Assembly (NCBI GenBank): GCA_027334565.1
Contig: DAHWUP010000002.1
Coordinates: 13,203-77,202 of the forward strand
From: Candidatus Levyibacteriota bacterium
GTDB lineage: Bacteria; Patescibacteriota; Microgenomatia; Levybacterales; UBA12049
Reading direction: 5' to 3'
DNA length: 64,000 nt
Made by a program: the position numbers and the translations under genes. Shown here one piece after another: positions 16,151 through 47,581 of the stretch. Numbering within the stretch: position 1 is the stretch's first letter; the number at the start of each line of letters is the position of its first letter. The notes under the pieces were generated by a model. That model saw only the letters and a program-made list of their open reading frames with translations. It made no database searches and had not been told where the DNA came from.

Positions 16151-16152
16151 AT

Positions 16153-18600: not shown

Positions 18601-18631
18601 TAAATCTTACGGCTTGTCAACTTCCCGAAAC

Positions 18632-20213: not shown

Positions 20214-20219
20214 AAAATC

Positions 20220-20681: not shown

Positions 20682-20726
20682 ATATTAATAGCCTAGCATA
20701 AATTTGATACGCTTGTCTATCGATTG

Positions 20727-21521: not shown

Positions 21522-21551
21522 TATATATATCTTATTATATAAAAACCGGAT

Positions 21552-22100: not shown

Positions 22101-22202
22101 GTATATATAATGATATACATACATTTTAAAGTCTGTCAAGAGTCAATTTAAGGCCAGATATTTGAACTTGATAAATTAAGTTTTGAAAATGCCTTTGATT
22201 TA

Positions 22203-23414: not shown

Positions 23415-23424
23415 ATAAAGATTC

Positions 23425-24492: not shown

Positions 24493-24495
24493 AGT

Positions 24496-26241
24496 TTATT
24501 CCTGGGCAACCCTTAATACTTCCTCGATGGTCGTGACCCCGGCCAACACCTTCAGATAACCGTCCTGTTTCATGGTTATCATACCTTCAAGTATCGCCTC
24601 TTTTTCTATTGTACCAGAATCGGCGTGTTGTAAAATCAGCGTCGCGATTCTTTCGTTTATCGGCAATGTCTCAAAAATACCGATTCTTCCGATATAACCC
24701 GATCCGCCGCATTCCTGGCAACCCTTTCCTTTATAAAACTTTATTTTCCCGATATTTGCCGGGAAGTATTTACCCAACACGTTCTTTATCTCCGTGACCA
24801 GCGGGGGAGGAGGCGTCAGTTCAACTTTACAATGTTGGCAAATCTTGCGCACGATCCTTTGTCCGAGTACAGCATTCATGGTGGATGCCAGCAAAAAAGT
24901 CTCCGCACCAAGATCGAGAAGCCGGGGAAGTGCTCCGGCAGCATTTGAGGTATGCAGGGTTGAAAACACCAAATGTCCGGTCAAAGCGGCTTGAATAGCA
25001 AGTTCTGTAGTTTCCGGGTCCCTGATTTCTCCGACCAGAATGATATTCGGGTCCTGCCTTAAGAAAGACCTTAAGCCTTCCGCAAAAGTAAGACCCACCG
25101 CAGGATTTATCTGCACCTGATTGACCCCCTGCATTTGATATTCAACCGGATCCTCAAGCGTTGAAATATTAACCCTGGTTGTATTCAATTTGTTCAAAAC
25201 GGAATAAAGGGTGGTCGTTTTACCGGAACCGGTCGGACCTACTACAATGATTATACCATGGGGCCTAAGCATTGCCGTTTCCAGATTGCGCAAAGAAGAA
25301 CCGTTTAACCCCAGTTCTTCAAGCGTAGGTACGCCGCCGGATTTTCTTAAAAGCCTCATCACGATCTTTTCACCAAAAGTTGTCGGCAAGACCGAGATCC
25401 TCAGGTCAACTTCCTTATCGTCAACCTTGAAATTGAATCTACCGTCCTGCGGGATACGGTGCTCGTCGATCTTCATCTCGGACAAAATCTTGATCCTGGA
25501 AATAACCGCTTCCTGAACGCTTTTGGGCAACGACAATCTGTCGTATAAGATTCCGTCTATGCGGTACCTTACCCTGACCCGGTCTTCCATCGGCTCGATA
25601 TGAATATCCGACGCTCTGCTGTTGACAGCGTACTCGAGTATGGTCGAAACGATTTTTGCTATCGGCGCCTCTTTGATTATCTGGGCGATTTGTTGGGTAT
25701 CGACCGTTTTAATTTTGGAGGTGGTCTCAGTTTCTTTCAGGGCTTCTCCCACTTCCCCCACCAATTCCTGTCGGTATTGCTGGTCAATAGCCCGTTGAAC
25801 CTGCGTTTTTGAAGCCGCAAAGGCTTTAATGGTCTGACCCGATCTTTCCTTGACAAAAGTGATCGCCTCAAGGTCGACCGGGTTGGACATGGCAATAGAA
25901 AGGATTTTTGACTTCTCGTCATACAAAAACGGGATCAGCGAAAATCTTTCCGCGACCGAACGCGGAACAAAACCCAGGGCTTGGGGGGAAAACGATTGGG
26001 TGTCAAGCGAAACGAAAGGTATGTCAAAGACCTTCGCTTTTGCCTGCGCCAGTTTTTCTTCGGGAACAATATTCGAATCCTCGACAATGCTTTCTTCGGT
26101 TGCGCCACTTGAAGCACTTTTTACCTTAATGTCGTCGTATTGTTGTTTGGTTATGAGCTTTTCCGAAAATAACACATCGGCAATGGTTTTGGCGTCGGAA
26201 AAGCCGTCGGCACCTGATGATAAAGTTATCGTATCGGGCAT
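24496..26241 (-). CDS. pilB: Type IV pilus assembly ATPase PilB (GspE family)
   Basis: N-terminal GSPII_E_N domain, Walker A VVGPTGSGKTTTLY, tetracysteine motif CQHC...CQEC. Confidence 0.9.
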   Translation of the reverse strand: MPDTITLSSGADGFSDAKTIADVLFSEKLITKQQYDDIKVKSASSGATEESIVEDSNIVPEEKLAQAKAKVFDIPFVSLDTQSFSPQALGFVPRSVAERFSLIPFLYDEKSKILSIAMSNPVDLEAITFVKERSGQTIKAFAASKTQVQRAIDQQYRQELVGEVGEALKETETTSKIKTVDTQQIAQIIKEAPIAKIVSTILEYAVNSRASDIHIEPMEDRVRVRYRIDGILYDRLSLPKSVQEAVISRIKILSEMKIDEHRIPQDGRFNFKVDDKEVDLRISVLPTTFGEKIVMRLLRKSGGVPTLEELGLNGSSLRNLETAMLRPHGIIIVVGPTGSGKTTTLYSVLNKLNTTRVNISTLEDPVEYQMQGVNQVQINPAVGLTFAEGLRSFLRQDPNIILVGEIRDPETTELAIQAALTGHLVFSTLHTSNAAGALPRLLDLGAETFLLASTMNAVLGQRIVRKICQHCKVELTPPPPLVTEIKNVLGKYFPANIGKIKFYKGKGCQECGGSGYIGRIGIFETLPINERIATLILQHADSGTIEKEAILEGMITMKQDGYLKVLAGVTTIEEVLRVAQE

Positions 26242-26318
26242 TACTATTATAGTAATTAAAAATAAGTTATAATGTCAACCAGAAACAACGACTAAAAAAC
26301 AGTCTGTCGAATAATCGT

Positions 26319-26957
26319 ATGCAAAGCGTGATCATCCTTGGTACAACCGAGAAAACCAGGGAGAAAGCAAATCAGATCCTTTCCGAATACAAAATCTCGA
26401 ATTTTGACGCTTCGGTCTTTTCCTCGGATAAGGCAATCGGAATTCCGGAAGTCAGACTCCTGCAAAAAAATATTTTTCTAAAACCGTTTGCGTCGGAAAA
26501 GAAAGCCGTGGTTTTGGAATGCTTTTGCGGCGTCACCGTCGACGCTCAAAACGCGTTTCTTAAAGTTTTGGAGGAGCCTCCGACAGACACTATTATAATG
26601 TTACTTGCCACAAGCCTTGATTTTATCTTACCGACGGTTTTATCAAGGTGCAATTTGATCGACCTGACAAGCAGAATACAGCAGTTGCCCAAACAACGTA
26701 AGGAAAATTTAGAACTGCTGGAATCATTGGTCTTTAGCGCGGAAAATCCCTTGCTGATCGCGCAAAACTACGGCAAATCCAAAGAATCTGCCCTCAAGAT
26801 ATTGGAAGAATTGATCACCGCTGCCGAAGAAAAAATGCAGACCGATCATTCGCTGGCAAAAACGCTGAAAGAGCTTCAAAAAACTTATACTATTATCAAA
26901 TCCACCAACGTTAATGTCCGTTTTGCCCTGGAAAACCTATTTTTAAATCTTAAATAA
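26319..26957 (+). CDS. holB: DNA polymerase III delta-prime subunit-like (short)
   Basis: AQNAFLKVLEEPP and LPTVLSRC are clamp-loader delta' motifs. Only 212 aa. Confidence 0.65.
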   Translation: MQSVIILGTTEKTREKANQILSEYKISNFDASVFSSDKAIGIPEVRLLQKNIFLKPFASEKKAVVLECFCGVTVDAQNAFLKVLEEPPTDTIIMLLATSLDFILPTVLSRCNLIDLTSRIQQLPKQRKENLELLESLVFSAENPLLIAQNYGKSKESALKILEELITAAEEKMQTDHSLAKTLKELQKTYTIIKSTNVNVRFALENLFLNLK

Positions 26958-26963
26958 CCGTCC

Positions 26964-27617
26964 TTAAGCGTTACGGCAATAGGAGAAAAGCGAAAAGACA
27001 TTCCCGAATCCTTTTGAGAATATGCCGTGCATTATGCAGGGAAGGAAATCATGCAACCTTATCATTGCCAGAAATCCCAAACCAATCACCAAAATGAAAA
27101 GGGTAGCAAAGTTATTTTTGACGAACTCAAGGCTTAACATTTTATTCTTACCGCGTTTATCTTTTACCAGCGAAACGATATTAAGTAAAACCGCCAGAAA
27201 AGGAAAGAACAACACCCAAGTAAAAAGCACAGGTGCCCGGTAAAGAAATGTATGGCTAAAAAAATTATACGATTGTTGATTAATATGCCCCAAGTTTCCC
27301 TGCGCGACCCTGCTTGAAAAATCAATGACGGACATCAATAAAATGGGCAAAAGAAGAACTGCTCCGGCGATATTAAAATTGTTAAGATGAAAATATTTTT
27401 TCATACCGACCTCTTGCATTTCGTATATATTCTCAAAAATAATACCTTTTGATAAATCCATTAACTGAAACGTCCAAAAACCGGCCCCGGCTTTTCCCTT
27501 GGCTCTCAACTCGTCATGATATAAATCCTCAAGATCCAAGAGTATTTGACTTTTGAATCTTTGCCGGTAGCTTTCGGGATAAAAACGGAGTAATTTTTTA
27601 TATATTTGTTCATACAT
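26964..27617 (-). CDS. PadR-associated integral membrane protein (hypothetical)
   Basis: Cytoplasmic N-domain (YPESYRQRF...LLDLEDLY) followed by about 4 TM helices. Overlaps the upstream padR stop by 8 nt (co-transcribed). Confidence 0.5.
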   Translation of the reverse strand: MYEQIYKKLLRFYPESYRQRFKSQILLDLEDLYHDELRAKGKAGAGFWTFQLMDLSKGIIFENIYEMQEVGMKKYFHLNNFNIAGAVLLLPILLMSVIDFSSRVAQGNLGHINQQSYNFFSHTFLYRAPVLFTWVLFFPFLAVLLNIVSLVKDKRGKNKMLSLEFVKNNFATLFILVIGLGFLAMIRLHDFLPCIMHGIFSKGFGNVFSLFSYCRNA

Positions 27618-27963
27618 AGCATAAGAAAAGTTTTAATGTTGCCGGATCTTCCAGGACATTGATCTTTTTTGCTCGATGAAGTGTTTCTTCATACCTTTGT
27701 AATTCGGACGAAAGATTTCTTCTGCCAAGCGACGTTAAGGTGTAATATTTTCTTCTGTCCTTTTCCCCGGCTTCTTTTACCCAACCGCTCTTAAGCATCC
27801 TTTTTATAGCGCCGTACAGCGTGCCCGGGCCCATGGCGACTTTCCCTTTTGAGTCGGTTTTGACCTGTTTCATGATATCGTAGCCGTGTCTATCCTTAAC
27901 CGCCAGAGAAAGGAGGATAAAAAGGACCTGTGGGGAAATAGAATCAATGGTTTTGCTATTCAT
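27610..27963 (-). CDS. PadR family transcriptional regulator
   Basis: Winged-helix region HGYDIMKQV...GPGTLYGAIKRMLKSGWV is the PadR signature. Confidence 0.85.
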   Translation of the reverse strand: MNSKTIDSISPQVLFILLSLAVKDRHGYDIMKQVKTDSKGKVAMGPGTLYGAIKRMLKSGWVKEAGEKDRRKYYTLTSLGRRNLSSELQRYEETLHRAKKINVLEDPATLKLFLCYV

Positions 27964-28024
27964 GCCTTTATTATATCACTTCGCGATATACTGTCAAGTC
28001 TACTAATATTTTCAAAAATTATGA

Positions 28025-28030
28025 TAGAAT
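28025..28030 (+). promoter_or_regulatory. -10 element TAGAAT 6 nt upstream of ATG 28037
   Basis: tagaat, then aatttt, then ATG. Confidence 0.4.
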
Positions 28031-28036
28031 AATTTT

Positions 28037-28243
28037 ATGAGCGCAGAAAATCTTGGTGAAAGGCCCCGAACCGCCTTGGAAATGTCCATACACTTGAGCA
28101 GATTATTGCCGCAAATGGGCATCCATCCCGAAGTGGCCCTTCATGAAGCACTTTTGCGGATGTCCGCTGAGAAAGAGCATGAACTGCCCTTTGAACGAAC
28201 ACAAACGGATGTTAACCAAAAAACCCGAAGCCCCGTGCTATAA
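28037..28243 (+). CDS. Hypothetical small protein (68 aa)
   Basis: ORF preceded by -10-like element. No recognisable domain. Confidence 0.3.
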   Translation: MSAENLGERPRTALEMSIHLSRLLPQMGIHPEVALHEALLRMSAEKEHELPFERTQTDVNQKTRSPVL

Positions 28244-28244
28244 T
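28236..28244 (+). promoter_or_regulatory. Extended -10 (TGcTATAAT) 7 nt upstream of GTG 28252; overlaps stop codon of preceding ORF
   Basis: tgctataat at 28236-28244, then tttccca, then GTG. Confidence 0.45.
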
Positions 28245-28251
28245 TTTCCCA

Positions 28252-29253
28252 GTGAGTAAAGCGGTGATCCCACATAAAGACGCAATTATCGATAAAGGTT
28301 CGTTCAGAAATGTAATGGCCCTTGCCCTTGATCCGTCAACACATTACAAAACCGGGCTCATCAGATGCATCACCAAAAGGACAGGCAAACTCCATGTCAG
28401 GGGCTATATCGATGAAAGCCTGCTGTATAAAGTTGAAAGAAGCGGCTTGGAACATTTTATAATCACCGACAGGTTAAAAATTGAAAATGAAAATGAATTG
28501 ATTAATAACTTAACCGGCGGCAGGAAGTTCTTGGGACTTGAGGATCCGGATATCTGGCTGGATGAAGAATCACAAAGGCTGCATGTTTATTACACCATTC
28601 CCTTTCTTGACGAAAACCGCAAAAAAACGGAGACCTACCTTGGCCACGCGGAAGGAAACGATTTGGATTCGTTAAAAATGACGGCGCCGCTTATTTCGCC
28701 CGATGCGCAAATCTCCCGCGCCAAAGAGGTTTCGATCGCTCCCAAAAATAGTCGGGGAGTGAGACTGAATTTAATTGAATCACGCGAAAGAAACGACACC
28801 ATCGATTATTCGACCGTACGCGTGGCGGTTGCCCCAAATCCTTCGGATAACTGGTCACTGGGGAATCTGGTGTTTCATCCAAAAACAAACGGTTACGATT
28901 GGTGCAGCGGCCACGCTTCGCCCGGTCCTATGTTTTCCAAAAATTTTATTGACGTCGGGAAGAACAAAGTGCTTGCGATACTAAACGGCCGCGAAAAAGA
29001 GGTCCGCAAAAACGGAAAAGCTTATTACGGAATGTTTTCGGTCGGACTGATGATCTATAACTTCGAAGAGGGTAAGATCGAATGGACCTCTAAGCAACCG
29101 CTTATTAAAGACCCAAACGCCAAAACTATCACTTTTGCCAGCCAGTTTGTGCAAACGAATGCAAATGAAGGAATTCTTTATGCACATATCGACGATTCAT
29201 TCGTGCGTGCATATACCCTCAGAGCCGATGGATTACGAAGTCTCCTACCGTAA
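28252..29253 (+). CDS. Hypothetical protein, 333 aa (possibly beta-propeller glycosidase-like; unverified)
   Basis: GTG start. Long ORF with clean codon structure. No motif I can assign with certainty. Confidence 0.5.
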   Translation: MSKAVIPHKDAIIDKGSFRNVMALALDPSTHYKTGLIRCITKRTGKLHVRGYIDESLLYKVERSGLEHFIITDRLKIENENELINNLTGGRKFLGLEDPDIWLDEESQRLHVYYTIPFLDENRKKTETYLGHAEGNDLDSLKMTAPLISPDAQISRAKEVSIAPKNSRGVRLNLIESRERNDTIDYSTVRVAVAPNPSDNWSLGNLVFHPKTNGYDWCSGHASPGPMFSKNFIDVGKNKVLAILNGREKEVRKNGKAYYGMFSVGLMIYNFEEGKIEWTSKQPLIKDPNAKTITFASQFVQTNANEGILYAHIDDSFVRAYTLRADGLRSLLP

Positions 29254-29300
29254 CTTTGTCAAAAATATCACGCGGGACAGGAAATGGTATAATTCCAACC

Positions 29301-29561
29301 ATGCCGATAGCAGAAACACTTAGTAACTCTTTACATAATCAGCTAAACCGCGAAGTTGCTACCGCTTCAATTTTCGGTCTGGGTGGTATCGCACTCACCG
29401 TAGCGGGTCTTGATACAACAATCCGCGGATTTGAACATCAGGATTTAATCGGAATAGGTTTCGGAACTTTCGAACTGCTTTTGGCGACCCAACCGGCAAC
29501 GGATTTTAGACAGCATCTCCGTGCTCTCAATGCAACCCCTCACACGAATGGAAAAAAATAA
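29301..29561 (+). CDS. Hypothetical small protein
   Basis: Start moved to ATG 29301 (MPIAETL...), which is preceded by TGgTATAAT at 29285-29293 plus 7 nt. Confidence 0.35.
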   Translation: MPIAETLSNSLHNQLNREVATASIFGLGGIALTVAGLDTTIRGFEHQDLIGIGFGTFELLLATQPATDFRQHLRALNATPHTNGKK

Positions 29562-29564
29562 TTT

Positions 29565-29816
29565 ATGAATCCTAAAGAAAGCTCAAAATTACAATTATTA
29601 AGAAGGATCGAACGTAACCCTCGCTCGGAACTCGGACAGACATTTCGCATGGTCAGAGATTTGCTGCAACAAACCGCAAGGGAACAAGATATGCTTGACG
29701 GGGGAAACGGCAGGACTTTTTACAGGTATACGCTCCGCGACGCTATCGACTTGGCCTGGGAAGAAGGGGAACCAAGCAACCTTAGTATCAGAAAATTATT
29801 CGATCAACCGCACTAA
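29565..29816 (+). CDS. Hypothetical small protein (83 aa)
   Basis: ORF only. Confidence 0.35.
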   Translation: MNPKESSKLQLLRRIERNPRSELGQTFRMVRDLLQQTAREQDMLDGGNGRTFYRYTLRDAIDLAWEEGEPSNLSIRKLFDQPH

Positions 29817-29865
29817 TCAGCTTATAGTAATATGGCTTGATTAGACTTAACCTTAACCCATGCGC

Positions 29866-29871
29866 TATAAT
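29866..29871 (+). promoter_or_regulatory. -10 TATAAT 6 nt upstream of ATG 29878
   Basis: tataat, then tcgcac, then ATG. Confidence 0.45.
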
Positions 29872-29877
29872 TCGCAC

Positions 29878-30087
29878 ATGCGGAGCTTGGAATCGATGGA
29901 AAGGGCAACCCCGGAGTTTCAATCACTTTCATTAGCGGAAAAATTCAAAAGGACCCGTGAACTTTCGCAGGTGCTTGAATTGATACTGAACCGTGAACTT
30001 CCTTTGGAAGGCGCTCAGGAAATTGTCTCAATCGCTCTGGAAAGACACCTGGCGGGAAGAGTCTTAAGACATAAATTAAAACCGTGA
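29878..30087 (+). CDS. Hypothetical small protein (69 aa)
   Basis: ORF with leaderless-type promoter. ORF track gives 29860. Confidence 0.35.
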   Translation: MRSLESMERATPEFQSLSLAEKFKRTRELSQVLELILNRELPLEGAQEIVSIALERHLAGRVLRHKLKP

Positions 30088-30165
30088 CCGCCGCGCTTTA
30101 AATAATGATTAATTTAGCAGTGTAAAACATATGTTAGAACAATGGACAAAATAACCGACAAAAGT

Positions 30166-30194
30166 TTGTTTATCACTCTTATCTAAGCTATAAT
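30166..30194 (+). promoter_or_regulatory. Promoter TTGTTT-N17-TATAAT, 6 nt before ATG 30201
   Basis: ttgttt at 30166-30171, tataat at 30189-30194, then cctctc, then ATG. Confidence 0.5.
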
Positions 30195-30200
30195 CCTCTC

Positions 30201-30728
30201 ATGCTTCAGATCAATTTTTATCCCGAATGCGATAATCCGGTCTTTGAAAAAGCCGCGGAAGAATACGGGCGTCTTTGGCACGAAGAAGAAGAAAGAATTG
30301 TTGCAACAATTGAGGAAGTAAGCGGATTAAAATTCAGGGAAACAATCATAAACGCAATTGTTTACGACAGATCCTCTTATTCAAAACCACTTAGCCTGGA
30401 AGCAAAACTTTCTAAAGATGATAAGAAAGAAGCATTGATTCATGAAATCTGTCATCGGTTACTGCTGGGCAATAAAATAAGGTGGGAAAAATTAAAAGGC
30501 AAACACGCTTCCTACTTGATATCCCATAAACCCTTGGATTTAATTCTATATGACATTCTTGTAAAACTATACGGAAAAAACTTTGCCAAAAAAAGTGTAG
30601 AAACCGAAATAAATGAATGGCAGAAATGGGGCGGGATCGGTGTAAGTCCTTATAAATTGGCCTGGGACTGGGCGCTGGCAATGAGCGGAGAAGACAGGCA
30701 AAGGGAATTCAAAAAATATTTGTTATAG
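30201..30728 (+). CDS. Hypothetical protein with HExxH motif (HEICH), putative minimal zinc metallopeptidase
   Basis: EALIHEICHRLLLGN contains HExxH. No other assignable domain. Confidence 0.45.
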   Translation: MLQINFYPECDNPVFEKAAEEYGRLWHEEEERIVATIEEVSGLKFRETIINAIVYDRSSYSKPLSLEAKLSKDDKKEALIHEICHRLLLGNKIRWEKLKGKHASYLISHKPLDLILYDILVKLYGKNFAKKSVETEINEWQKWGGIGVSPYKLAWDWALAMSGEDRQREFKKYLL

Positions 30729-30756
30729 ATATAGTATAGTAATTAATACGGAGGTA

Positions 30757-30785
30757 TTGACATTTTTATAGACCTCTAGTATAAT
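30757..30785 (+). promoter_or_regulatory. Perfect consensus sigma70 promoter TTGACA-N17-TATAAT, 6 nt before ATG 30792
   Basis: ttgaca at 30757-30762, 17-nt spacer, tataat at 30780-30785, then gtacgc, then ATG. Confidence 0.6.
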
Positions 30786-30791
30786 GTACGC

Positions 30792-31238
30792 ATGAAATTT
30801 TTTGAGAGACGGATTCCTGGAAGGGCGCAGGCGATAGCGGAGGAAATTGCGATATCCGAAGCTGTCCAGCCGGCACAACCGATTTACGTCTGGAAAGATG
30901 AAAGAAGCGAAGAGGAAGAAGAGCAACTACGACTGGCCGCTCTTAACCACAGTTATGCCTCAACATTGATTGGCGAATTAAACGGACACCCACAGGTTGA
31001 AGTCGAAAATCCGGACTCCTGGTATCCTAATGTATATATCCATGACGAACGCTTTCCCGATGACGTTCATTACCGCATCGGATTTGTAGGCAGGTTAGAC
31101 GGGGGAGTTACCATCGGACACATTGATTTAAACCGAAGACAGGCTATAGACCCTCAACTGGTAACAAACGCGTTCAATCAGGCGCGTGAAACAGCCGAAC
31201 CGATCTTCGGAAAACTTCGATTAGACGCTAATCGATAA
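30792..31238 (+). CDS. Hypothetical acidic protein (148 aa)
   Basis: ORF plus consensus promoter. Confidence 0.45.
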   Translation: MKFFERRIPGRAQAIAEEIAISEAVQPAQPIYVWKDERSEEEEEQLRLAALNHSYASTLIGELNGHPQVEVENPDSWYPNVYIHDERFPDDVHYRIGFVGRLDGGVTIGHIDLNRRQAIDPQLVTNAFNQARETAEPIFGKLRLDANR

Positions 31239-31304
31239 ATAGACCGTAAAAAACACCCCTACACAACAATTATTTAAAACACAAAATGATATAATACTCA
31301 CTTA

Positions 31305-31634
31305 ATGTTAAGCGAAAGTGAACCAACGCTAAGATTGATACGGGGTGGCGTCAGCGGTTTGGAAAATGAACTTACCAACGGCCTATATTCCGTCAAGGTG
31401 GTCAGATCGCCGCTTGGCCGGACCGTAAGCGATACCGGCACAACCATTATCGGTAGGAGTCAGGGAGTTTCAATAACCGTAGAAACGGACGGTAAAACAG
31501 TCCACGAAGAACGGGTTTATCCGGTCTTTACAAGCATAAGAGACAGATTCGGTATCGAAGTTAAAAAACCGTTTTATGACGAAAGAATTGTACTGGCACA
31601 AAACAGAGCGGTACGGATTGCCTCGAAACTTTAG
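31305..31634 (+). CDS. Hypothetical protein (109 aa)
   Basis: ORF. TGaTATAAT at 31287-31295 lies upstream. Confidence 0.4.
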   Translation: MLSESEPTLRLIRGGVSGLENELTNGLYSVKVVRSPLGRTVSDTGTTIIGRSQGVSITVETDGKTVHEERVYPVFTSIRDRFGIEVKKPFYDERIVLAQNRAVRIASKL

Positions 31635-31783
31635 TTCTTACCCTGATATTCTGCTTTGAAGTCAACGGTGATATAATAACTCCATGCCAGAGCAAGGGGT
31701 CGAAAGATCAAGGGGACCTGCGTTTTTGGAAAGAATCGAATATGCTTTTGTTCATCTGATCTTGGAAAGGACCGTTAAGTTTC

Positions 31784-32011
31784 ATGGCAAATTTTGAATC
31801 CGAAAACAAAATCACTTTAAGAAATGTGGGCAACAAAAACTTACAAGAGGCGTATAGAGCTGTCGCTTCGGTTCTCCTGAAAGAACTCCCTCATGCAAAA
31901 TTCTTTAGAGAAGGGCTTGATGACGCCGATGTCAGAAATTCCGAGCTTGGAATATGGGCGATACAAAAAGCCGGAAATTTCGGTTCTTCCCGTACCGGAG
32001 TAATTTCGTAA
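31784..32011 (+). CDS. Hypothetical small protein (75 aa)
   Basis: ORF only. Confidence 0.3.
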   Translation: MANFESENKITLRNVGNKNLQEAYRAVASVLLKELPHAKFFREGLDDADVRNSELGIWAIQKAGNFGSSRTGVIS

Positions 32012-32018
32012 CGCAAAT

Positions 32019-32047
32019 TTGGTTTTGTAATCTGTCTTCGCTATAAT
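32019..32047 (+). promoter_or_regulatory. Promoter TTGGTT-N17-TATAAT, 6 nt before ATG 32054
   Basis: ttggtt at 32019-32024, tataat at 32042-32047, then ccgcat, then ATG. Confidence 0.5.
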
Positions 32048-32053
32048 CCGCAT

Positions 32054-32599
32054 ATGCAAACTTATGAAGTCGAATTAAGAGCATTTATTTCCAAAACGCA
32101 ATACACGAATCTTCTTAAAAAATTCGGTTCGCTATCAAAAGGAGAACAGGATAATGCTCGTACCTACACTTTTGTGACATCGGATATCAACATAAAGGTC
32201 AAAAACCTGATTTCAAGGAAAAAGGCGAAAATCACCGTCAAAAATGGCGCTGAGTACAGACAGGACGTCAAAGAAACGGAGCTTGAAATCGATCCCAAAA
32301 ATGTTTTAAAAGCCGTTGAGTTAGTCAAGGCCATCACGGGATTCAAACAATTCATACCGAGTTTTCAAAAACGCATCAACTTTATGATCAACGGCATTGC
32401 AGTTTCCGTAAAAAACGACACACACTGGAAATATCACGTCGAGGCCGAAATACTGGTAAAAAACAAAAAGGAAATTCCTGCCGCTAAAAAGAAGTTGAGA
32501 AAGTTTTTTGAAGGATACGGACTTAAACCCGAAAGCGAAAAAAATTTAAGAAAAAAAATAAATCATTACATATCAAAGTATGGTTTTAAAAAAATATAG
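32054..32599 (+). CDS. Hypothetical Lys-rich protein, possibly CYTH-like (triphosphate tunnel metalloenzyme) fold
   Basis: N-terminal MQTYEVELRAF resembles the CYTH ExExK/R motif. The 181-aa size fits CYTH. Weak support. Confidence 0.4.
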   Translation: MQTYEVELRAFISKTQYTNLLKKFGSLSKGEQDNARTYTFVTSDINIKVKNLISRKKAKITVKNGAEYRQDVKETELEIDPKNVLKAVELVKAITGFKQFIPSFQKRINFMINGIAVSVKNDTHWKYHVEAEILVKNKKEIPAAKKKLRKFFEGYGLKPESEKNLRKKINHYISKYGFKKI

Positions 32600-32649
32600 C
32601 GCTTGAGAAATATTCGACAACCCTTGGCAACTGAGGTATAATTTCCGAC

Positions 32650-33099
32650 ATGGAAAGTGAAGCGCGCATCGTCGATGTTATCCAAACCCATGGGAAAATA
32701 CACGTTTATTCGACCGTAGACTATGGTGATGGAGAATCACATAGAAGCGAACCAACGCCTTACCCCTCGTTCGAAACAGCCGAACAGCAGCTCGGAAACG
32801 AAATCAAAGACTCCTCGGTAAAACAGGATATCTATCGCAATTTAAAAAAAGTTGAAGCGGCGGCTTTTGGATTGATAGTGTTAAAAGACCTGATTACAAC
32901 CCAGATGAGTAACAGAGCCGACACGGATTTAATTCCCATCATCTCGGTGGCCGGGATATTCGTATTTACCAATATTGTCGATGCATTCAACAGCAACCGA
33001 CTGGTTTCGTCAAGACAAGAATACGCTGCAGTGGTTGAAGCCAAGGATAAAAACCTAGTCCAATATGAAAGGGTCTTTCCGCTTTATGATGAAGAATAA
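32650..33099 (+). CDS. Hypothetical protein (149 aa)
   Basis: ORF. TATAAT at 32637-32642 lies 7 nt upstream. Confidence 0.4.
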   Translation: MESEARIVDVIQTHGKIHVYSTVDYGDGESHRSEPTPYPSFETAEQQLGNEIKDSSVKQDIYRNLKKVEAAAFGLIVLKDLITTQMSNRADTDLIPIISVAGIFVFTNIVDAFNSNRLVSSRQEYAAVVEAKDKNLVQYERVFPLYDEE

Positions 33100-33186
33100 A
33101 TTACCAATCGGGAAAAGTACCCCCGTAATATTTGAAATTTAAACAGTTTATTTGATATTTTTTATTTTTTTGCTACAATTTGCGTC

Positions 33187-33630
33187 ATGGCTTTACTTGA
33201 AGCGGGCAGATTCAAAGAACAACCTATCCCCATAGTAACCGACAGAGAACGGGAAATTCCCCATGACCTTATCGATCCTGATTACTCCGACAAAAGATTC
33301 GTAGAATCGAGCGCGGCAACCACAGTCTTTTTGGATCCCGGATCCCGGACGGTGACCAGTATGGGCTTGGAATTCGTTCCCGGCGCCCACTACGAATATG
33401 ACGACAGACTGTTGCAGAAAAACCACGAAGCTTATCAGAAAGCCTGGGAAAAGGCTTCCGAGCTGACAGACGGAACCAGAAATGCCCGCTTTTATGAGGA
33501 ATTTCTAAGGACTTTATATCAAAATCCCCATACGAAACTGGTACATATCTTAACTGGTATCAACCGGGGCAACGGTTTTTCGTACCGGGCTTTTGGAACA
33601 ATAGATACATCGATACAGCCCCAACAATAA
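33187..33630 (+). CDS. Hypothetical protein (147 aa)
   Basis: ORF. TGcTACAAT at 33171-33179 lies 7 nt upstream, with TTGATA at -35. Confidence 0.4.
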   Translation: MALLEAGRFKEQPIPIVTDREREIPHDLIDPDYSDKRFVESSAATTVFLDPGSRTVTSMGLEFVPGAHYEYDDRLLQKNHEAYQKAWEKASELTDGTRNARFYEEFLRTLYQNPHTKLVHILTGINRGNGFSYRAFGTIDTSIQPQQ

Positions 33631-33731
33631 ATAATTACGGTAATATTTTGAAGATGGAAAAACCTATGTTTTAGAAAAAAATTTTGGCCGGAAAAGTTGG
33701 CAGGATAAAAAATAAACCGGTTTTTATCGAC

Positions 33732-34484
33732 TTAAGAGGGTTTAAAGTGATCTTTCCAGTCTTTTGGCCCAAACTGCCCGAACGGACGGCCGGTAAGATG
33801 GGCCAACATCTCTTCTTCGCTTACGCCCATCGCCTGAAGCTGTCCGACCCTATGCTTTGCCAAATGATGAAGTTTGCCGGGATCTTCACCCTCCATCCAA
33901 TAGTCATCAACGTCCAAATAATACTTCATAAAAAGTGCGGCAAAGGCGTCCGCTTTCATCTCTTCGAATATGGTTTCCTCAATGTGCTCTCCCAGCGAAT
34001 GTCCGTATTCGTGGGCCAGAATCTCCATAACATCTTCATGTTCGACCTGGGTGGTATCTTTGCCGAACCCCAATCTTATCCTGAATCCTACCGGCAACCT
34101 GGTCAAGTCACCGGCAATTCCGTTAAGTATATAGGGGCCGTATTTTCTGACCAAAGCCAGCTGATCTTCGGGAAGCTTGGGTATCATTTTACTTGCGGGA
34201 ATAAAATATATTTCGCGGTCGTCTAAGGGAAGCTCCACACCGGTGAGCCCGCTTATCTGTCCGATCGTATCCCTGTACTCGGCGATGACATTCCTTCTTG
34301 ACCAGGGTCTTATTCCTTCCACGATTTCTTCTTGGGAATCGGTGGTCTGATTGTTGTTTAAAACCTCATCATTAGAATCGTTGATAACATCCATTCCTCT
34401 TTTCCTAAACAAGGAAAAGGTCCTCGGGCTTCTTGGAGCCCTCGGCGCTGTAAATTTAACGCCTTCGAAATATCTTTCTTTCAT
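33732..34484 (-). CDS. Putative zinc metallopeptidase (HEYGH motif; ImmA/IrrE-like)
   Basis: ILAHEYGHSLGEHIEE fits the HExxH...H pattern of M78 (ImmA/IrrE) peptidases. Chosen over the overlapping antisense ORF 33684..34226. Confidence 0.55.
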   Translation of the reverse strand: MKERYFEGVKFTAPRAPRSPRTFSLFRKRGMDVINDSNDEVLNNNQTTDSQEEIVEGIRPWSRRNVIAEYRDTIGQISGLTGVELPLDDREIYFIPASKMIPKLPEDQLALVRKYGPYILNGIAGDLTRLPVGFRIRLGFGKDTTQVEHEDVMEILAHEYGHSLGEHIEETIFEEMKADAFAALFMKYYLDVDDYWMEGEDPGKLHHLAKHRVGQLQAMGVSEEEMLAHLTGRPFGQFGPKDWKDHFKPS

Positions 34485-34585
34485 AAATGCGAATTATAGC
34501 GCATTTTCGGGCAAAATTAAAACTTAGAATTGTTTGCATTTTACGGTTCCAAAGAGTATAAAAATAATATATCAGATAAAATCAC

Positions 34586-36031
34586 ATGTTTGGTTCATTT
34601 AATAAATGGTTTAATAAACCAAGAACTAACCAGTTAGGGTTTTTAATCATATTTTTCTTCTTTTTAATTTACCTGACCTTGTCCCTGGTAACCCATTTTC
34701 ATTTTTTATCCGGATATGACCTTGCGATAGTTAACCAATATGTTTATGAGTGGTCGCATTTTAAAATTCCCGTATCAACGGTAAGCGCTTATCCGTTTTT
34801 GCCTTTTTATACCGACCATATCGAACTCATATTCATGCTTCTTTCTCCTTTTTACTGGATTTATCCCAACGCCGTCACTTTGCTTGTTTTGCAGGCCTTT
34901 TTTATGGCGCTTTCCGGTATCGCCGTTTTGTTTCTTTGCCAAAGATACAAGATCAATTCGTTTCTTACCTTGTCCATTTTGACCTCCTACCTGTCTTTTT
35001 ACGGCATCCAGTTCGCTGTTTATTACGATGCGCACAGTCTGGTTTTTGGGGCCGCATTCCTGGCTTTTTTTATATATTTTCTGGATAAAAATTCAAGATG
35101 GTCCATTTTGTTTTTTCTTCTAGCGGTTACGTCAAAAGAGGATATCGCGCTCCTGACGCTTTTGCTCTCTTTTATTGTTTTTGCCGTCAAAAGGACCAAG
35201 CTGAGTTTTTATTTCATGCTCGGTTCGGTACTTTACTTGATTATGATCTTTATGGTCATTTTCCCGCATCTTGCCCAAGGATTCGGGGCGCAAAAGCAAA
35301 AAAATATAAACTTCGACCCTAGAAACTTCGTCAATACCGGGACAAAAATCGAGGTGATAGGCTATTCGCTGGGGTGGTTCGGTTTGCTGCCCTTGTTTTT
35401 GCCTTTATATCTTATTCCGTTCTTAGGCGACCTGTTCCATTATTTTGTGCTGGGTGAAGCGGTATCAACCGCGCAGGGCTTTTACTATCATTACCGGGTG
35501 ACCATCGCCATCTTGCTCACCTATCCGACTATCTTGGTTATAAGCAAGTCAAAAATCCTTAACCGAAGATACACCGGCTTATATCTTCTTCTGTGTGCGC
35601 TACTTTTTACTTATTTGATCCACGCGCCATTTACTTACCTTGCAAAAAAATGGTTCTGGACAAAGCCCCGCTCGGCCGGTGAGATCACCAAAGTATTGGC
35701 GTATCTGCCGAACAACGCTTCGGTTGTAGCACAAAACAACATTACATCACATATTTCAAACCGGATGAATGTTTTTACTCTCTGGCCGGATAAAAGAACA
35801 TTCAAAACCGGTTCGCCCTGCCAAAAACCGGTCTGTGACTGGTTTAAGTGGTCCGGAAACCCGCAATATCTGGTCGTTGATACGTCTACCGCTTGGGATG
35901 CCCGCTTTTTTTTAACCGACAGGCAAAGTTTTATTTTAGGACTTGACAACATGGAAAAAGAAGGGATCATTAAAAAGTATGTACAGGCGGACACTTCGGT
36001 TTTGTATAAGATTCAAAAACCTCCGTATTGA
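34586..36031 (+). CDS. Polytopic membrane protein, DUF2079 / GT-C-fold glycosyltransferase-like
   Basis: About 11 predicted TM helices in the N-terminal 350 aa plus a C-terminal soluble domain. Architecture and size match DUF2079-type membrane proteins. Confidence 0.5.
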   Translation: MFGSFNKWFNKPRTNQLGFLIIFFFFLIYLTLSLVTHFHFLSGYDLAIVNQYVYEWSHFKIPVSTVSAYPFLPFYTDHIELIFMLLSPFYWIYPNAVTLLVLQAFFMALSGIAVLFLCQRYKINSFLTLSILTSYLSFYGIQFAVYYDAHSLVFGAAFLAFFIYFLDKNSRWSILFFLLAVTSKEDIALLTLLLSFIVFAVKRTKLSFYFMLGSVLYLIMIFMVIFPHLAQGFGAQKQKNINFDPRNFVNTGTKIEVIGYSLGWFGLLPLFLPLYLIPFLGDLFHYFVLGEAVSTAQGFYYHYRVTIAILLTYPTILVISKSKILNRRYTGLYLLLCALLFTYLIHAPFTYLAKKWFWTKPRSAGEITKVLAYLPNNASVVAQNNITSHISNRMNVFTLWPDKRTFKTGSPCQKPVCDWFKWSGNPQYLVVDTSTAWDARFFLTDRQSFILGLDNMEKEGIIKKYVQADTSVLYKIQKPPY

Positions 36032-36079
36032 TTTGGCTTTGTAAACGAAAAAGTTTGAGGGATTTAGCCGTTGGGCATA

Positions 36080-36107
36080 TTGACAACGCCTTAACTATTT
36101 GTATAAT
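36080..36107 (+). promoter_or_regulatory. Promoter TTGACA-N16-TATAAT, 6 nt before ATG 36114
   Basis: ttgaca at 36080-36085, tgtataat at 36100-36107, then cctaac, then ATG. Confidence 0.55.
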
Positions 36108-36113
36108 CCTAAC

Positions 36114-36584
36114 ATGGCAGAGATATTAAGAAGAACTCTTGGTTCCGACCTCCACGAACCCTTACCCGGCTCACCCAAACCTCCGCGAATCGACGCGAAG
36201 CTGGAAAGATTATTCGAGAAAGCAGATTCGGCAGAAGCCGAAGGCCTTGAAGACACACCACGCAGGTTTCGTCTGGCTGCCGCAGGCGCATTGGAAAGAT
36301 ACGAGTCATTCCGTCCCGTAAATCCCGATGAGCAAGTTTTGCAGGCCGAATACGGAGATATGGCGCTAAGAGGTTATCTTGGGGCTGGTGATACCGAAGA
36401 AGCCGTAGACCTTGCGGAAAGATTAGCAAAATCGGCACCCAGTGCACATTATTTTGAAAGAGTAACAAAAAGACTGCAACTCGCAGATCCGAGTTTGTTA
36501 AACGAACTTTTAAGAAGAAGGGAAGCCGTGCGCCGTTCGTTTGAAGATTTCCATCTTACACTACATTCTAAACCCGTAAAATAA
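36114..36584 (+). CDS. Hypothetical Ala/Arg/Glu-rich helical protein
   Basis: ORF downstream of a consensus promoter. ORF-track start 36099 overlaps the -10. Antisense ORF 36109..36468 judged spurious. Confidence 0.4.
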   Translation: MAEILRRTLGSDLHEPLPGSPKPPRIDAKLERLFEKADSAEAEGLEDTPRRFRLAAAGALERYESFRPVNPDEQVLQAEYGDMALRGYLGAGDTEEAVDLAERLAKSAPSAHYFERVTKRLQLADPSLLNELLRRREAVRRSFEDFHLTLHSKPVK

Positions 36585-36630
36585 CTTCAAGCAAATTCGA
36601 ATCCAAAGCCGGAAGTGGTATAATTTTTTT

Positions 36631-37227
36631 GTGGCCAACGACCTGGTGAAACAAAGTTACGAAAAAGTAGCGAAAGACTATGTCTCAAAACGGGATCAGT
36701 TCAAAAGTTTAAAATATCTGGAACGGTTTTCGCAGCTGGTCAAACAGGGAGGTGCAATTCTGGACGTTGGCTGCGGCGCAGGCCTTCCCGTCGATAGATT
36801 TCTGATAAAAAAGGGTTTTTCCGTAAACGGATTGGATATTTCGCCAAAAATGGTAAAGCTTGCAAAGCGGAATGTCCCGCAGGCTTTTTTCGAAGTCAAA
36901 GACATGTCAGAACTTAATAAAGGAGAGTATCGCGTTGACGGAATCGTTTCTTTTTATGCCATATTCCACATTGGAAGAGAACAGCATCAGGATCTTTTGA
37001 AAAAATTTGCATCTTTCATGCCAAACGGAGGACCTATACTCGTGACAATGGGGGCAGAAGAATGGGAGGGGACGGAAGAAAACTTCCATGGAGAAAAAAT
37101 GTTCTGGAGTTTCTACGGAAAAGAGAAAAACAGAAAACTTTTGGAAAACGCGGGATTTAAAATTTTATCGGATGAAATCGATACTTCTGGCAACGAAAGA
37201 CACCAGATAATTATTGCCAAAATTTAA
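36631..37227 (+). CDS. Class I SAM-dependent methyltransferase
   Basis: Motif I ILDVGCGAGLP and motif II/III spacing typical of the Methyltransf_11/25 family. GTG start preceded by TGgTATAAT at 36616-36624. Confidence 0.8.
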   Translation: MANDLVKQSYEKVAKDYVSKRDQFKSLKYLERFSQLVKQGGAILDVGCGAGLPVDRFLIKKGFSVNGLDISPKMVKLAKRNVPQAFFEVKDMSELNKGEYRVDGIVSFYAIFHIGREQHQDLLKKFASFMPNGGPILVTMGAEEWEGTEENFHGEKMFWSFYGKEKNRKLLENAGFKILSDEIDTSGNERHQIIIAKI

Positions 37228-37265
37228 TCTCCGAGGCTGAAAGTGTTATAATTAAAAAAGCTTCC

Positions 37266-38003
37266 ATGAGACGGAGGAAAATTAAACAAACTACTAAATC
37301 CTCGATAAAAGCCGGCGTAAATATTGTTCTCTTGGCATTATTAATTTTAATATTTATTTTTTACCTTGTATTTACTTACCAAAAACAAATATTTGGGATT
37401 GCTGGAATTTCAAACAGCAAAACTGACAATTTTACTCAAAAGATAGAAGACTTAAAATTTATATCACCGTCTCCAACTAGAACCCCAACACCGACACCGA
37501 CACCAATAATTAACAACTACCAAAATAATGGACAGACAAATAATCTTAATGCACAATGGGGCGTTGCTAAACAAACGGGTTCGGATACTTGGTCGCAACA
37601 AATAGGTTGTGATAACAAAATGGGCACACCTGATGATGTTTTTCAGGCGTTAAATAATTATAGGCACGTACACAACGTTGGTGGGCTAACTTGGAATGAT
37701 AATTTGGCTGCGGAAGCACAATCCAGAGCGGATTATTTTAATTCGATTGGTAAAATTGATGATCACGTTGGACTAAATGATTTTCTAAATAACCAAAACG
37801 GATTTAATAAATTAGGATTTGGATACGTTGGAGAAAATTCTTCATTGGGACAATGTCCATTACTAGGAGTCCACATAATCGAATGGATTTTTGCTTCAGA
37901 TCAACCTCATAACGCAAATCAATTAAATCGCGATTGGGGTTATGTTGGAGTAGGTGTAAGTGGTTATGCTGTTGATTTAATCTTCGGCGCAGATAAATAT
38001 TAA
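37266..38003 (+). CDS. Membrane-anchored CAP/SCP (PR-1-like) domain protein with Thr-Pro linker
   Basis: N-terminal TM helix, TRTPTPTPTP linker, CAP motifs (HNVGGLTWNDNLA..., GENSS, WGYVGVG). Confidence 0.65.
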   Translation: MRRRKIKQTTKSSIKAGVNIVLLALLILIFIFYLVFTYQKQIFGIAGISNSKTDNFTQKIEDLKFISPSPTRTPTPTPTPIINNYQNNGQTNNLNAQWGVAKQTGSDTWSQQIGCDNKMGTPDDVFQALNNYRHVHNVGGLTWNDNLAAEAQSRADYFNSIGKIDDHVGLNDFLNNQNGFNKLGFGYVGENSSLGQCPLLGVHIIEWIFASDQPHNANQLNRDWGYVGVGVSGYAVDLIFGADKY

Positions 38004-38015
38004 CTAATCTGAAAA

Positions 38016-38024
38016 TGCTATAAT
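38016..38024 (+). promoter_or_regulatory. Extended -10 TGcTATAAT 6 nt upstream of GTG 38031
   Basis: tgctataat, then ccagtc, then GTG. Confidence 0.45.
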
Positions 38025-38030
38025 CCAGTC

Positions 38031-38507
38031 GTGGAGACAAAACGGTGGATTAATTTTTTAAAAAGGATTCCTAGCATCTTAAAGCAACTTGCTTCTTTAA
38101 CTAATGGGCGAATGTGGTTGGACGCGGAAAGGAATTTTTTTGAATACAATAAATCAATAATAACACTTGCATCATCTGCCTTAGTATTATCATTTACTGC
38201 AGCTAAAATTAGTAATTTACACACCAACCTAATAACACTTGCAATAAGTTGGGTTGGTTTTATTATAACCATATTTTTCGGACTATCAATCCAGCTAATG
38301 AACTTTCTCTATTCTCTTGCTGAAAGCAATATCCATAAGCTTTCAGAAGATAAAGTGTTTAAGTCAGAAAACCTTAAGAATCCAGAGGTTGGATTTTACT
38401 GGGAAGCTAGAATTGTTATGTTTTGGATATCAATTTTTGAAATGTTTTTATTTATTTTATCATTAGTTTTTTTAATGATATCAGCGTTCCTTACAATCAG
38501 TTATTAA
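38031..38507 (+). CDS. Hypothetical membrane protein (about 4 TM helices)
   Basis: Hydrophobic segments. No recognisable domain. Confidence 0.4.
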   Translation: METKRWINFLKRIPSILKQLASLTNGRMWLDAERNFFEYNKSIITLASSALVLSFTAAKISNLHTNLITLAISWVGFIITIFFGLSIQLMNFLYSLAESNIHKLSEDKVFKSENLKNPEVGFYWEARIVMFWISIFEMFLFILSLVFLMISAFLTISY

Positions 38508-38613
38508 AATGATTATGGATGCGGAAATAACCACCAGAAAATTAGTTCTTCGAGGAACGATCAGGTAAAAACAATTGAAATAAAATTCTCATTGAGTATA
38601 ATAGACAACTATT

Positions 38614-38952
38614 ATGCCTCCGTATGAGTGCCCGGAGAGGGGCGCAAGATTCAACGCAAGGTTTATAAGAATCGGCGAAAAACTTTACTCGGGAAAAAAT
38701 ATACATGAAACCCACGGCCATATCGCGGAAATGGACCATCTTAAACAGGCGATCGGGGACTTAAAACGTGTAAATTCAGCCGAAGTGGACGGAGGAATAT
38801 ATCATGCAACAAGTGACGGTCAGATACTGATAATCGGAAATTCCGCGACATTTGATATTCCCGTTAGTGGTGTTAAGAGGCTTGCGCGCGAACTGACAAA
38901 GGAAGCATTTCAGGCGCAAAGCCCCGGCCGCGAGGTAATTATCATTAAATAA
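38614..38952 (+). CDS. Hypothetical protein (112 aa)
   Basis: ORF only. Confidence 0.35.
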   Translation: MPPYECPERGARFNARFIRIGEKLYSGKNIHETHGHIAEMDHLKQAIGDLKRVNSAEVDGGIYHATSDGQILIIGNSATFDIPVSGVKRLARELTKEAFQAQSPGREVIIIK

Positions 38953-38998
38953 ATTCAATTTGGGCGCTGGAAATTTACCGTTCGGTTTGTTAAAATAG

Positions 38999-40975
<1,977 letters not shown>

Positions 40976-40992
40976 CTGATATAATTAATGGC

Positions 40993-42860: not shown

Positions 42861-42914
42861 ACACGAATAAGTCTTGAAAATAAGCTTAACCTTCTTTATA
42901 ATTGAAAGGTTCTT

Positions 42915-47572: not shown

Positions 47573-47581
47573 AATATTATC

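Follow-up and report, generated by a model that had tools for sequence, protein, structure and literature searches.

In the GeneMarkS-2 classification of gene starts, group C is defined by a Pribnow box located 6-8 nucleotides (nt) from the start codon of first genes; it comprises 1028 of 4769 bacterial genomes, mainly Actinobacteria and Deinococcus-Thermus, and the other genes of these genomes, leadered or internal, use ribosome-binding sites (RBS) (PMC6028130). In mycobacteria, a 5′-terminal ATG or GTG is necessary and sufficient for leaderless initiation, and small leaderless open reading frames (ORFs) coupled to downstream genes are common (PMC4633059). For Deinococcus deserti, the figure cited in PMC6028130 is 167 leaderless genes among 262 with mapped starts. 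Genomes of group B have leadered mRNAs in which one and the same motif, not a Shine-Dalgarno (SD) sequence, precedes every gene, whether first or internal (PMC6028130). Here we describe start-proximal promoters in a 64,000-nt stretch of Candidatus Levyibacteriota DNA (assembly GCA_027334565.1, contig DAHWUP010000002.1, positions 13,203 to 77,202 of the forward strand), referred to below as the window and numbered from its first base. An initial annotation of the window had proposed that TATAAT hexamers placed 6-7 nt upstream of many start codons, most of them between 28 and 38 kb, give rise to leaderless mRNAs.

The window shares with group C, including the actinobacterial genera and species studied (M. 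tuberculosis, M. smegmatis, Streptomyces, Corynebacterium), a -10 box 6-8 nt before the starts of first genes, predicted mRNA 5′ ends that fall on ATG or GTG, frequent extended -10 elements (TGn) and an often weak -35 element. When the features of group C were tested, the spacing, the promoter companions, the preference for first genes (modest) and the use of ATG and GTG were found in the window, whereas RBS of SD type at the remaining genes were not. In Actinobacteria, SD sites stand at leadered and internal genes, but the window shows no SD enrichment; it also differs in its 42% G+C, in the full TATAAT consensus, in its origin from the Microgenomates of the Candidate Phyla Radiation (CPR) and in being read from sequence alone. 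D. deserti and the Deinococcus-Thermus phylum resemble it in the high share of transcription units with a promoter at the start codon, which is here predicted, although that phylum is unrelated and shows the group C use of RBS at other genes. The absence of SD enrichment (6% of starts in Bacteroidota loci and 4% in the window, both at random level) and AU-rich upstream regions are shared with Bacteroidetes of group B; in contrast to group B, the motif of the window comes with -35 or TGn as part of a promoter, and free-standing genes have it more often than coupled ones. In archaeal leaderless genes (Haloferax, Sulfolobus; group D), most transcription units are likewise leaderless with a fixed distance from promoter to start, but the TATA/BRE box lies about 26 nt upstream, unlike the bacterial -10, -35 and TGn elements found here. 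The window thus presents a known gene layout in a lineage for which it appears to be undescribed, combined with no detectable use of SD; a literature search, subscription journals not covered, gave no paper that treats initiation without leaders or without SD in CPR, Patescibacteria, Saccharibacteria, Parcubacteria or Microgenomates, and incidental mentions at most.

Promoter hexamers at start codons

The sequence from 27.9 to 33.3 kb was read directly, and the 16 starts listed in the initial annotation were read individually with the 45 nt upstream of each. An exact TATAAT ends 6-7 nt before the start codon in 11 of them (894, 28252, 29301, 29878, 30201, 30792, 32054, 32650, 36114, 36631 and 38031), and three others have a hexamer with one mismatch at the same distance (TAGAAT at 28037, TACAAT at 33187 and TATACT at 9569). 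At 50679, a weaker TAGGAT at 6 nt has a perfect TTGACA 17 nt upstream of it. The proposed position therefore held for 15 starts and failed for 4022, where CATAAT lies at 5 nt or TATCAT at 8 nt. The accompanying details were borne out: TGn precedes the hexamer in 7 of the 16 starts, a -35 element with at least 5/6 match to TTGACA lies at 16-17 nt spacing in six, both ATG and GTG are used (GTG at 28252, 36631, 38031 and 50679), and the hexamer at 28239-28244 includes the TAA stop codon (28241-28243) of ORF 28037-28243. Further sites of the same type, absent from the list, were found at 27963(-), 31684, 31305, 34484(-), 39005 (gyrB), 40993, 14224 (rpsP), 47582 (folD), 58491, 18579(-), 26241(-) (pilB) and 49514(-).

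The combination TATAAT-N6-7-RTG occurs 15 times on the two strands of the window, against 2.65 ± 1.66 expected from 300 dinucleotide-preserving shuffles (z about 7), an approximately sixfold enrichment of RTG exactly 6-7 nt past the hexamer. Among the 70 copies of TATAAT, RTG is found at spacing 6 in 11, whereas each of the other spacings between 0 and 30 has about 1.7. A comparison of this spacing with background had been named beforehand as a possible refutation of the leaderless proposal, and the spacing proved to be far above background. We then used a start set unbiased by the motif, consisting of the first start codon (longest ORF) of 72 ORFs selected by codon usage, and counted as near-consensus any hexamer with at least 5/6 match to TATAAT in which A2 and T6 were present. 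Such a hexamer lies at 6-7 nt in 14 of the 72 starts and in 4 of 510 internal in-frame ATG or GTG codons (Fisher, p = 1.2 × 10-10). Counted per distance in the same upstream regions, there were 8 hexamers at 6 nt and 6 at 7 nt, compared with 0.67 at 14-40 nt; no second peak was present, and no archaeal-type peak was observed near 26 nt.

The surroundings of the hexamers are those of promoters. A -35 element (at least 5/6 match to TTGACA, at 16-18 nt) accompanies 8 of the 29 start-proximal hexamers and TGn 13, and one or the other is found at 19, versus 65 of the 719 other -10-like hexamers in the window (p = 1 × 10-12). A trade-off in strength among -35, -10 and TGn is classical for sigma-70 promoters; weak hexamers (TAGGAT, TTTAAT, CATACT, TAAGCT, TACTAT, TATCAT) are paired with a perfect TTGACA, and promoters without -35 have TGn and a perfect TATAAT. 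Eight of the 41 exact TTGACA copies in the window end 27-34 nt before a longest-ORF start, where 0.18 are expected, and two further copies come into register if the promoter-adjacent in-frame ATG is taken as the start; none of the 41 ends 35-80 nt before a longest-ORF start, the zone of ordinary leadered promoters. Canonically, a -10 hexamer and position +1 are 6 nt apart. At the 22 sites with spacing 6-7, whose start codons are 18 ATG, 3 GTG and 1 TTG, position -1 is C in 13, compared with 6 of 41 genes without the motif (p = 4 × 10-4), and this C(-1)/purine(+1) arrangement fits the pyrimidine/purine context of a start-site motif. Genes counted as free-standing, being divergent from their upstream neighbour or separated from it by at least 40 nt, have the motif in 23 of 47 cases, and overlapping or abutting genes in 4 of 20 (p = 0.03). 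Companion elements, their compensation, the register of TTGACA, C(-1) and gene position together indicate that the hexamers are -10 elements of sigma-70 type.

With spacings of 5-9 nt, about half of the free-standing genes qualify, a share that rises to roughly two thirds once leaders as long as about 7 nt are allowed. Spacings of 8-13 nt (31305, 34484, gyrB, 3273, 38614 and hppA) imply leaders of about 1-7 nt, which are too short for an RBS. Over their first 45 nt, the predicted leaderless mRNAs are less stably folded than internal segments are (-5.1 versus -6.7 kcal/mol, p = 0.007); weak 5′ folding is expected at any gene start, and this difference was not used as evidence.

We consider it probable (about 0.8) that these are sigma-70-type promoters set so that RNA polymerase starts at or near the start codon, the predicted mRNAs being leaderless. 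All computational tests run favour transcription that begins on the start codon or a few nt from it, as the initial annotation had it. The trait is not special to 28-38 kb: start-proximal promoters are also found at housekeeping genes across the window and in related genomes of the Microgenomates group. Outside that region, they include TTGACA-16-TATAAT-6-ATG at 860-896 before an ElyC/DUF218-like gene (894-1571), TGaTATAAT-7-ATG at 40977-40995 before ORF 40993-41727, with its -35 region inside gyrB, TTGACA-17-TTTAAT-6-ATG at 49512-49549(-) before ORF 48369-49514, and TTGACA-18-(TGc)TAAGCT-8-ATG at 55150-55190 before ORF 55188-55859.

Conservation among related genomes

GyrB of the window is 85% identical to that of a metagenome-assembled genome (MAG) contig labelled 'uncultured Gammaproteobacteria', 74% to that of a Candidatus Levyibacteriota MAG and about 60% to those of Daviesbacteria and other Microgenomates MAGs, and the type IV pilus genes adjoining gyrB are syntenic with Microgenomates genomes. 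These identities and the synteny place the window in a CPR bacterium of the Microgenomates group. Six of the compared contigs (L001, L007, L009, L019, L045 and L075) bear the title 'uncultured Gammaproteobacteria', although they are close or closest relatives with GyrB identity of up to 85% and syntenic pilus and gyrB genes; judged from these sequences, the labels look wrong. The pilus genes belong to a long cluster resembling type IV pilus or type II secretion systems at 15350-26241(-), with PilB, PilT, PilC, a prepilin peptidase and several pilins with N-methyl motifs, syntenic in Microgenomates.

The 6-7 nt peak is found in the closest relative, L001, at 7 of 22 genes, and in other labelled Microgenomates loci at 15 of 115, with the peak at 6-8 nt. 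It is absent from the sampled CPR loci of Parcubacteria/Peribacteria type and from low-GC non-CPR loci (3% each). In addition, 80 metagenome loci were found with GyrA and binned by GyrA identity. The motif at 6-7 nt was present at 14 of 91 genes at identities of at least 82%, at 14 of 180 at 71-79%, at 5 of 58 at 56-66% and at 63 of 474 at 50-54%; in this last band, 43 hexamers lie at spacing 6 over a background of about 5.5 per distance. Internal ATG and GTG controls stayed at about 1% in all bands.

At individual genes, -35, -10 and their distance from the start codon are retained in the predicted promoters of orthologues, whereas the sequence around them has diverged. For gene 50679 (TTGACA-17-TAGGAT-6-GTG at 50644-50681; ORF 50679-51467), TTGACA-17-TAnnAT-6/7-RTG is kept in 8 of 11 loci, the window included, with variation of the spacers and even of the start codon. 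The pilB promoter (26239-26278(-); pilB 24496-26241) reads TTGACA-18-TACTAT-7-ATG, and the orthologues in L001 and L092 have the same layout. Orthologues of gene 53616 (TTGACA-18-CATACT-8-ATG at 53578-53618; ORF 53616-55142) keep TTGACA...CATACT at 8-11 nt. For folD (TAAAAT-6-ATG at 47570-47584; folD 47582-48427), TATAAT stands at 6-7 nt in 6 of 13 orthologues of relatives, and for gyrB (TGtTAAAAT-8-ATG at 38988-39007; gyrB 39005-40975), 9 of 12 loci, again with the window included, have a -10-like hexamer 5-12 nt before the gene. The 333-aa gene at 28252 has a homologue in Paceibacterota with TGcTATAAT-6-ATG. A weaker candidate, TATTAT-7-ATG at 58478-58493 before ORF 58491-59201, is not conserved in orthologues.

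Two side observations concern these promoters. The -10 hexamer takes in the TAA stop codon of the upstream gene twice, at ORF 28037-28243 and at gyrA before folD (hexamer 47570-47575), so that promoters are packed into gene ends. Upstream of a gene resembling H+-pyrophosphatase (42915-44954, upstream region 42874-42917), TTGAAA-17-TATAAT lies 12-14 nt from ATG in most relatives (L001, L082, L099, L100 and L116 share the site), and the conserved leader of about 6 nt, often with AGGTT, is the sole hint observed of a short purine-containing leader.

Initiation signals and choice of start codons

Several points weigh against the leaderless reading. The preference for free-standing genes is statistically modest (p = 0.03), and the four closely abutting genes that bear the motif require internal promoters within the upstream coding sequence. 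A hexamer at 5-9 nt is missing from about half of the free-standing genes, and leadered mRNAs without SD must therefore exist too. Gene calls in the related loci were crude (longest ORF), and the metagenome loci at 50-54% GyrA identity carry no taxonomic assignment. Finally, the positions of the transcription start sites are deduced from the spacing and from C(-1)/R(+1), and the leaderless state of the mRNAs is predicted from these.

The absence of a purine-rich SD, also claimed at the outset, was supported by two measures. A generic anti-SD tail was predicted to pair less strongly with the 18 nt before the starts of the window than with random positions in it (mean -1.4 versus -2.2 kcal/mol; -4.5 kcal/mol or lower in 10% versus 18%). 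An SD core tetramer, scored at -16 to -5, was found at 4% of starts and 5% of random positions in the window, at 7% of both in labelled Microgenomates loci, and at 6% versus 7% in loci of Bacteroidota, a phylum known to be poor in SD; the same crude pipeline gave 39% for Firmicutes and 34% for Chloroflexi. SD enrichment at starts was thus seen neither in the window, by pairing or by tetramer, nor in its relatives. When the window was scanned with Rfam and for tRNA genes, no rRNA or tRNA match resulted, and a conserved-motif scan for 16S rRNA in the 2.3 Mb of compared loci gave none. Loss of the anti-SD has been reported for a subgroup of Parcubacteria only, and CPR ribosomes are reduced, with uL30 absent, bL9 absent in most Microgenomates and a shortened bS1 of 3-4 domains (PMC9297842).

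Since SD motifs are absent, some other initiation signal is needed, and the TATAAT-like element could itself be one: an AT-rich ribosome-binding or enhancer signal in longer, leadered mRNAs, like that of Bacteroidetes and GeneMarkS-2 group B. The upstream regions of genes without the motif are indeed AU-rich (A 38%, T 33%; a measure of base composition, no motif search having been made there), and four closely abutting genes carry the hexamer. We nevertheless regard this as quite unlikely. A translation signal would not be expected to co-occur with TTGACA 16-18 nt upstream or with TGn, nor would it demand C at -1, and it should be as frequent at coupled internal genes as elsewhere, contrary to the 4 of 20 versus 23 of 47 observed. 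In orthologues, moreover, -35 is conserved along with -10.

Under the leaderless reading, a spacing of 6-7 nt would set the transcription start on the A or G of the start codon, and a spacing of 8-13 nt would set it 1-6 nt upstream. Transcripts would open with 5′-AUG or 5′-GUG without an RBS, and ribosomes may load directly on the 5′-terminal start codon, by analogy with Mycobacterium and Deinococcus. Genes of conserved operons without the motif overlap or abut the preceding cistron, with gaps of -8 to +12 nt, which suggests coupling of termination and reinitiation; access to downstream cistrons would depend on stop and start codons that overlap or lie close together and on AU-rich junctions with little structure, and not on SD pairing. 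A gene uncoupled from an upstream cistron would then need its own promoter at the start codon. Without SD or coupling, an independently acquired gene would presumably be translatable only as the 5′-proximal codon of its own transcript. In this scheme, the parts that we infer are the exact transcription starts, the way in which ribosomes load and the causal role in gene layout.

More tentatively, and with somewhat less than even confidence, initiation in the Microgenomates group at large may be essentially independent of SD, with half to two thirds of transcription units leaderless and the rest served by stop-start coupling or AU-rich junctions, in a way that shapes genome layout. The promoter would then double as a determinant of translation initiation, and every uncoupled or newly acquired gene would need a start-adjacent promoter. 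Such independence might be linked to the reduced CPR ribosome, with its shortened bS1 and missing uL30 and bL9 (PMC9297842). If true, a large, deep-branching radiation with a pared-down ribosome, leaderless and without SD, would be a natural system for asking which ribosome components are needed for initiation independent of SD. For annotation, start codons in such genomes should be called with a leaderless model, and expression constructs for CPR would place ATG directly after the promoter, with no RBS. Leaderless initiation is often regarded as the ancestral mode.

The choice of start codon was examined against public gene calls, homologues and curated models. It could be that the promoters are real and the true starts lie further downstream, ordinary 5′ untranslated regions happening to open with a fortuitous ATG or GTG. 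Most genes at 28-33.6 kb have no Pfam match or checked homologues, so that their starts rest on ORF structure and gene callers, and the NCBI calls for contig JAKBIG010000003.1 of GCA_021832785.1, which covers ten of the listed starts, differ at two of these, 28252 (called 28315) and 29878 (called 29860). At the other eight, the NCBI calls agree with the promoter-adjacent start. The 333-aa product of 28252 (ORF 28252-29253; TGcTATAAT-7-GTG at 28236-28254) has more than 1000 homologues of 332-351 aa with 51-60% identity at 95-100% coverage, mostly in Patescibacteria/Paceibacterota, and its N-terminus from GTG-28252 (MSKAVIPH...) is level with those of 14 homologues in an alignment. The NCBI start at 28315 (312 aa) would drop 21 residues, including the invariant H8 and F18, and the public call therefore appears to be 21 residues too short. 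In TyrS read from 9569 (TGcTATACT-7-ATG at 9553-9571; tyrS 9569-10756), residues 2-394 correspond to positions 3-405 of TIGR00234, a fit that argues for 9569 as the start rather than GTG 9548. TyrS, ribosomal protein S16 (start 14224; TGgTAAAAT-7-ATG at 14208-14226; rpsP 14224-14442) and FolD (47582) all match their NCBIfam models from model position 3-4, and gyrB has a single start codon within its open frame. The promoter-adjacent starts of four genes (28252, tyrS, rpsP and folD) are thus confirmed by the N-termini of homologues or models, and the promoter-adjacent start was correct wherever homologues or curated models were consulted. Downstream starts would also leave the sixfold enrichment of RTG past the hexamer unexplained, the codon being unused, and we consider them very unlikely.

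The variable insert between the holB-like gene and gyrB

The densest run of such promoters lies in a lineage-variable insert of 12 kb (26964-38952) between a holB-like gene (26319-26957) and gyrB, with about 22 mostly small genes. These are separated by 42-113 nt, and nearly every one has its own start-proximal promoter; the promoter density at 28-38 kb comes from this series of small genes with separate promoters. Daviesbacteria and other Microgenomates loci have gyrB immediately after the holB-like gene, beside the pilus operon. The interval holds a different 6-kb stretch in L001 and about 3.4 kb in L087, the inserts of relatives being alike in layout, and this site appears to be a hotspot at which gene content varies within the clade. 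The need of each uncoupled gene for its own promoter, if the scheme above is right, would explain the layout of one promoter per gene.

A mobile element or prophage remnant at 27-39 kb with strong, early-type promoters could give the same picture without any property of the host being involved, and the position of the variable insert between conserved neighbours, its many small genes without Pfam matches, and the highest density of consensus promoters, some with near-identical cores (a 17-nt exact repeat), are all in keeping with this. A Pfam search of 20 proteins of the insert region gave few matches, among them PadR, DUF2079, a methyltransferase and CAP, with CYTH and 8xMP below cutoff. However, no integrase-type or other phage or mobile-element domain was found among these 20, ten insert proteins gave no PHROG match, the tRNA scan of the window revealed no tRNA gene as attachment site, and the base composition of the insert is like that of the surrounding sequence. 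The same architecture is present outside the insert at tyrS, rpsP, gyrB, folD and pilB, and it reappears at the orthologues of housekeeping genes and all through related genomes. For these last reasons, promoters borne by a mobile element were rejected as the cause of the pattern, an origin to which we give very little credence. Chance co-occurrence in AT-rich intergenic DNA is practically negligible, because in a window of 58% A+T where TATAAT as a whole is only mildly over-represented (70 versus 55 ± 8) the enrichment is specific to the spacing (z about 7; p = 1 × 10-10 against internal ATG and GTG) and the count at 14-40 nt stays at background, which excludes this explanation.

On the reverse strand, the insert holds a gene for a PadR regulator (27610-27963), whose promoter, TTGACA-16-(TGa)TATAAT-6-ATG at 27961-27997(-), diverges from that of the 68-aa ORF 28037-28243 (TGaTAGAAT-6-ATG at 28022-28039), for which the NCBI gene call is identical. 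After the gene for the 333-aa protein follow the 86-aa ORF 29301-29561 (TGgTATAAT-7-ATG at 29285-29303), to which ORF 29565-29816 is coupled, and ORF 29878-30087, whose promoter, TAGACT-18-TATAAT-6-ATG at 29842-29880, contains the NCBI start, ATG 29860, just upstream of the -10. The 175-aa ORF 30201-30728 has TATAAT-6-ATG (30186-30203), and its orthologue in L087 has TGtTAAAAT-9-ATG. All 12 consensus positions are matched at two promoters, TTGACA-17-TATAAT-6-ATG at 30757-30794 before ORF 30792-31238 and TTGACA-16-TATAAT-6-ATG at 36080-36116 before ORF 36114-36584. Between them lie ORF 31305-31634 (TGaTATAAT-9-ATG at 31287-31307, with a predicted leader of about 2-3 nt), the CYTH-like ORF 32054-32599, a match below cutoff (TATAAT-6-ATG at 32042-32056), ORF 32650-33099 (TCGACA-17-TATAAT-7-ATG at 32614-32652), ORF 33187-33630 (TTGATA-16-(TGc)TACAAT-7-ATG at 33152-33189) and, on the opposite strand, ORF 33732-34484 (TATAAT-8-ATG at 34482-34498(-)). 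Two further promoters precede GTG: TGgTATAAT-6-GTG at 36616-36633 before a methyltransferase gene (36631-37227), and TGcTATAAT-6-GTG at 38016-38033 before ORF 38031-38507, which has a weak match to the 8xMP membrane-protein family, below cutoff.

The genes of the insert appear to be monocistronic despite the lack of enrichment of terminator-like hairpins, of which the intrinsic type numbered 14 versus 13 expected at 27.5-39.1 kb. The 37-aa ORF 31684-31797 (TGaTATAAT-6-ATG, a consensus promoter; 31669-31798 with the overlap) runs into the 75-aa ORF 31784-32011 by 14 nt in another frame, and 31684-32011 may be either a small leaderless ORF overlapping a downstream gene, as is known of mycobacterial leaderless small ORFs, or a frameshifted gene of 108 aa.

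Some promoters in the insert resemble each other beyond the hexamer. An exact 17-mer, ATGCGCTATAATTCGCA, is shared by the promoter cores at 29860-29876(+) and 34488-34504(-), on opposite strands, and L001 has gaTATAATccgcatATG at about 7770-7788. Families of the type cgcTATAATyCGCAy-ATG link 30182 with 32035 and 32028 with 38005. The shared cores could reflect an extended consensus (G at -14 and a C/G-rich discriminator), a regulator site or promoter duplication.

Two products of the insert deserve mention. The 333-aa protein, without Pfam or PHROG match, has many invariant residues, for example in GHASPGP and DDSFVRAY. In the 175-aa product of 30201-30728, to which an orthologue encoded in the variable insert of L087 is 51% identical, an HExxH motif (HEICH) recognized by eye suggests a small metallopeptidase-like protein.

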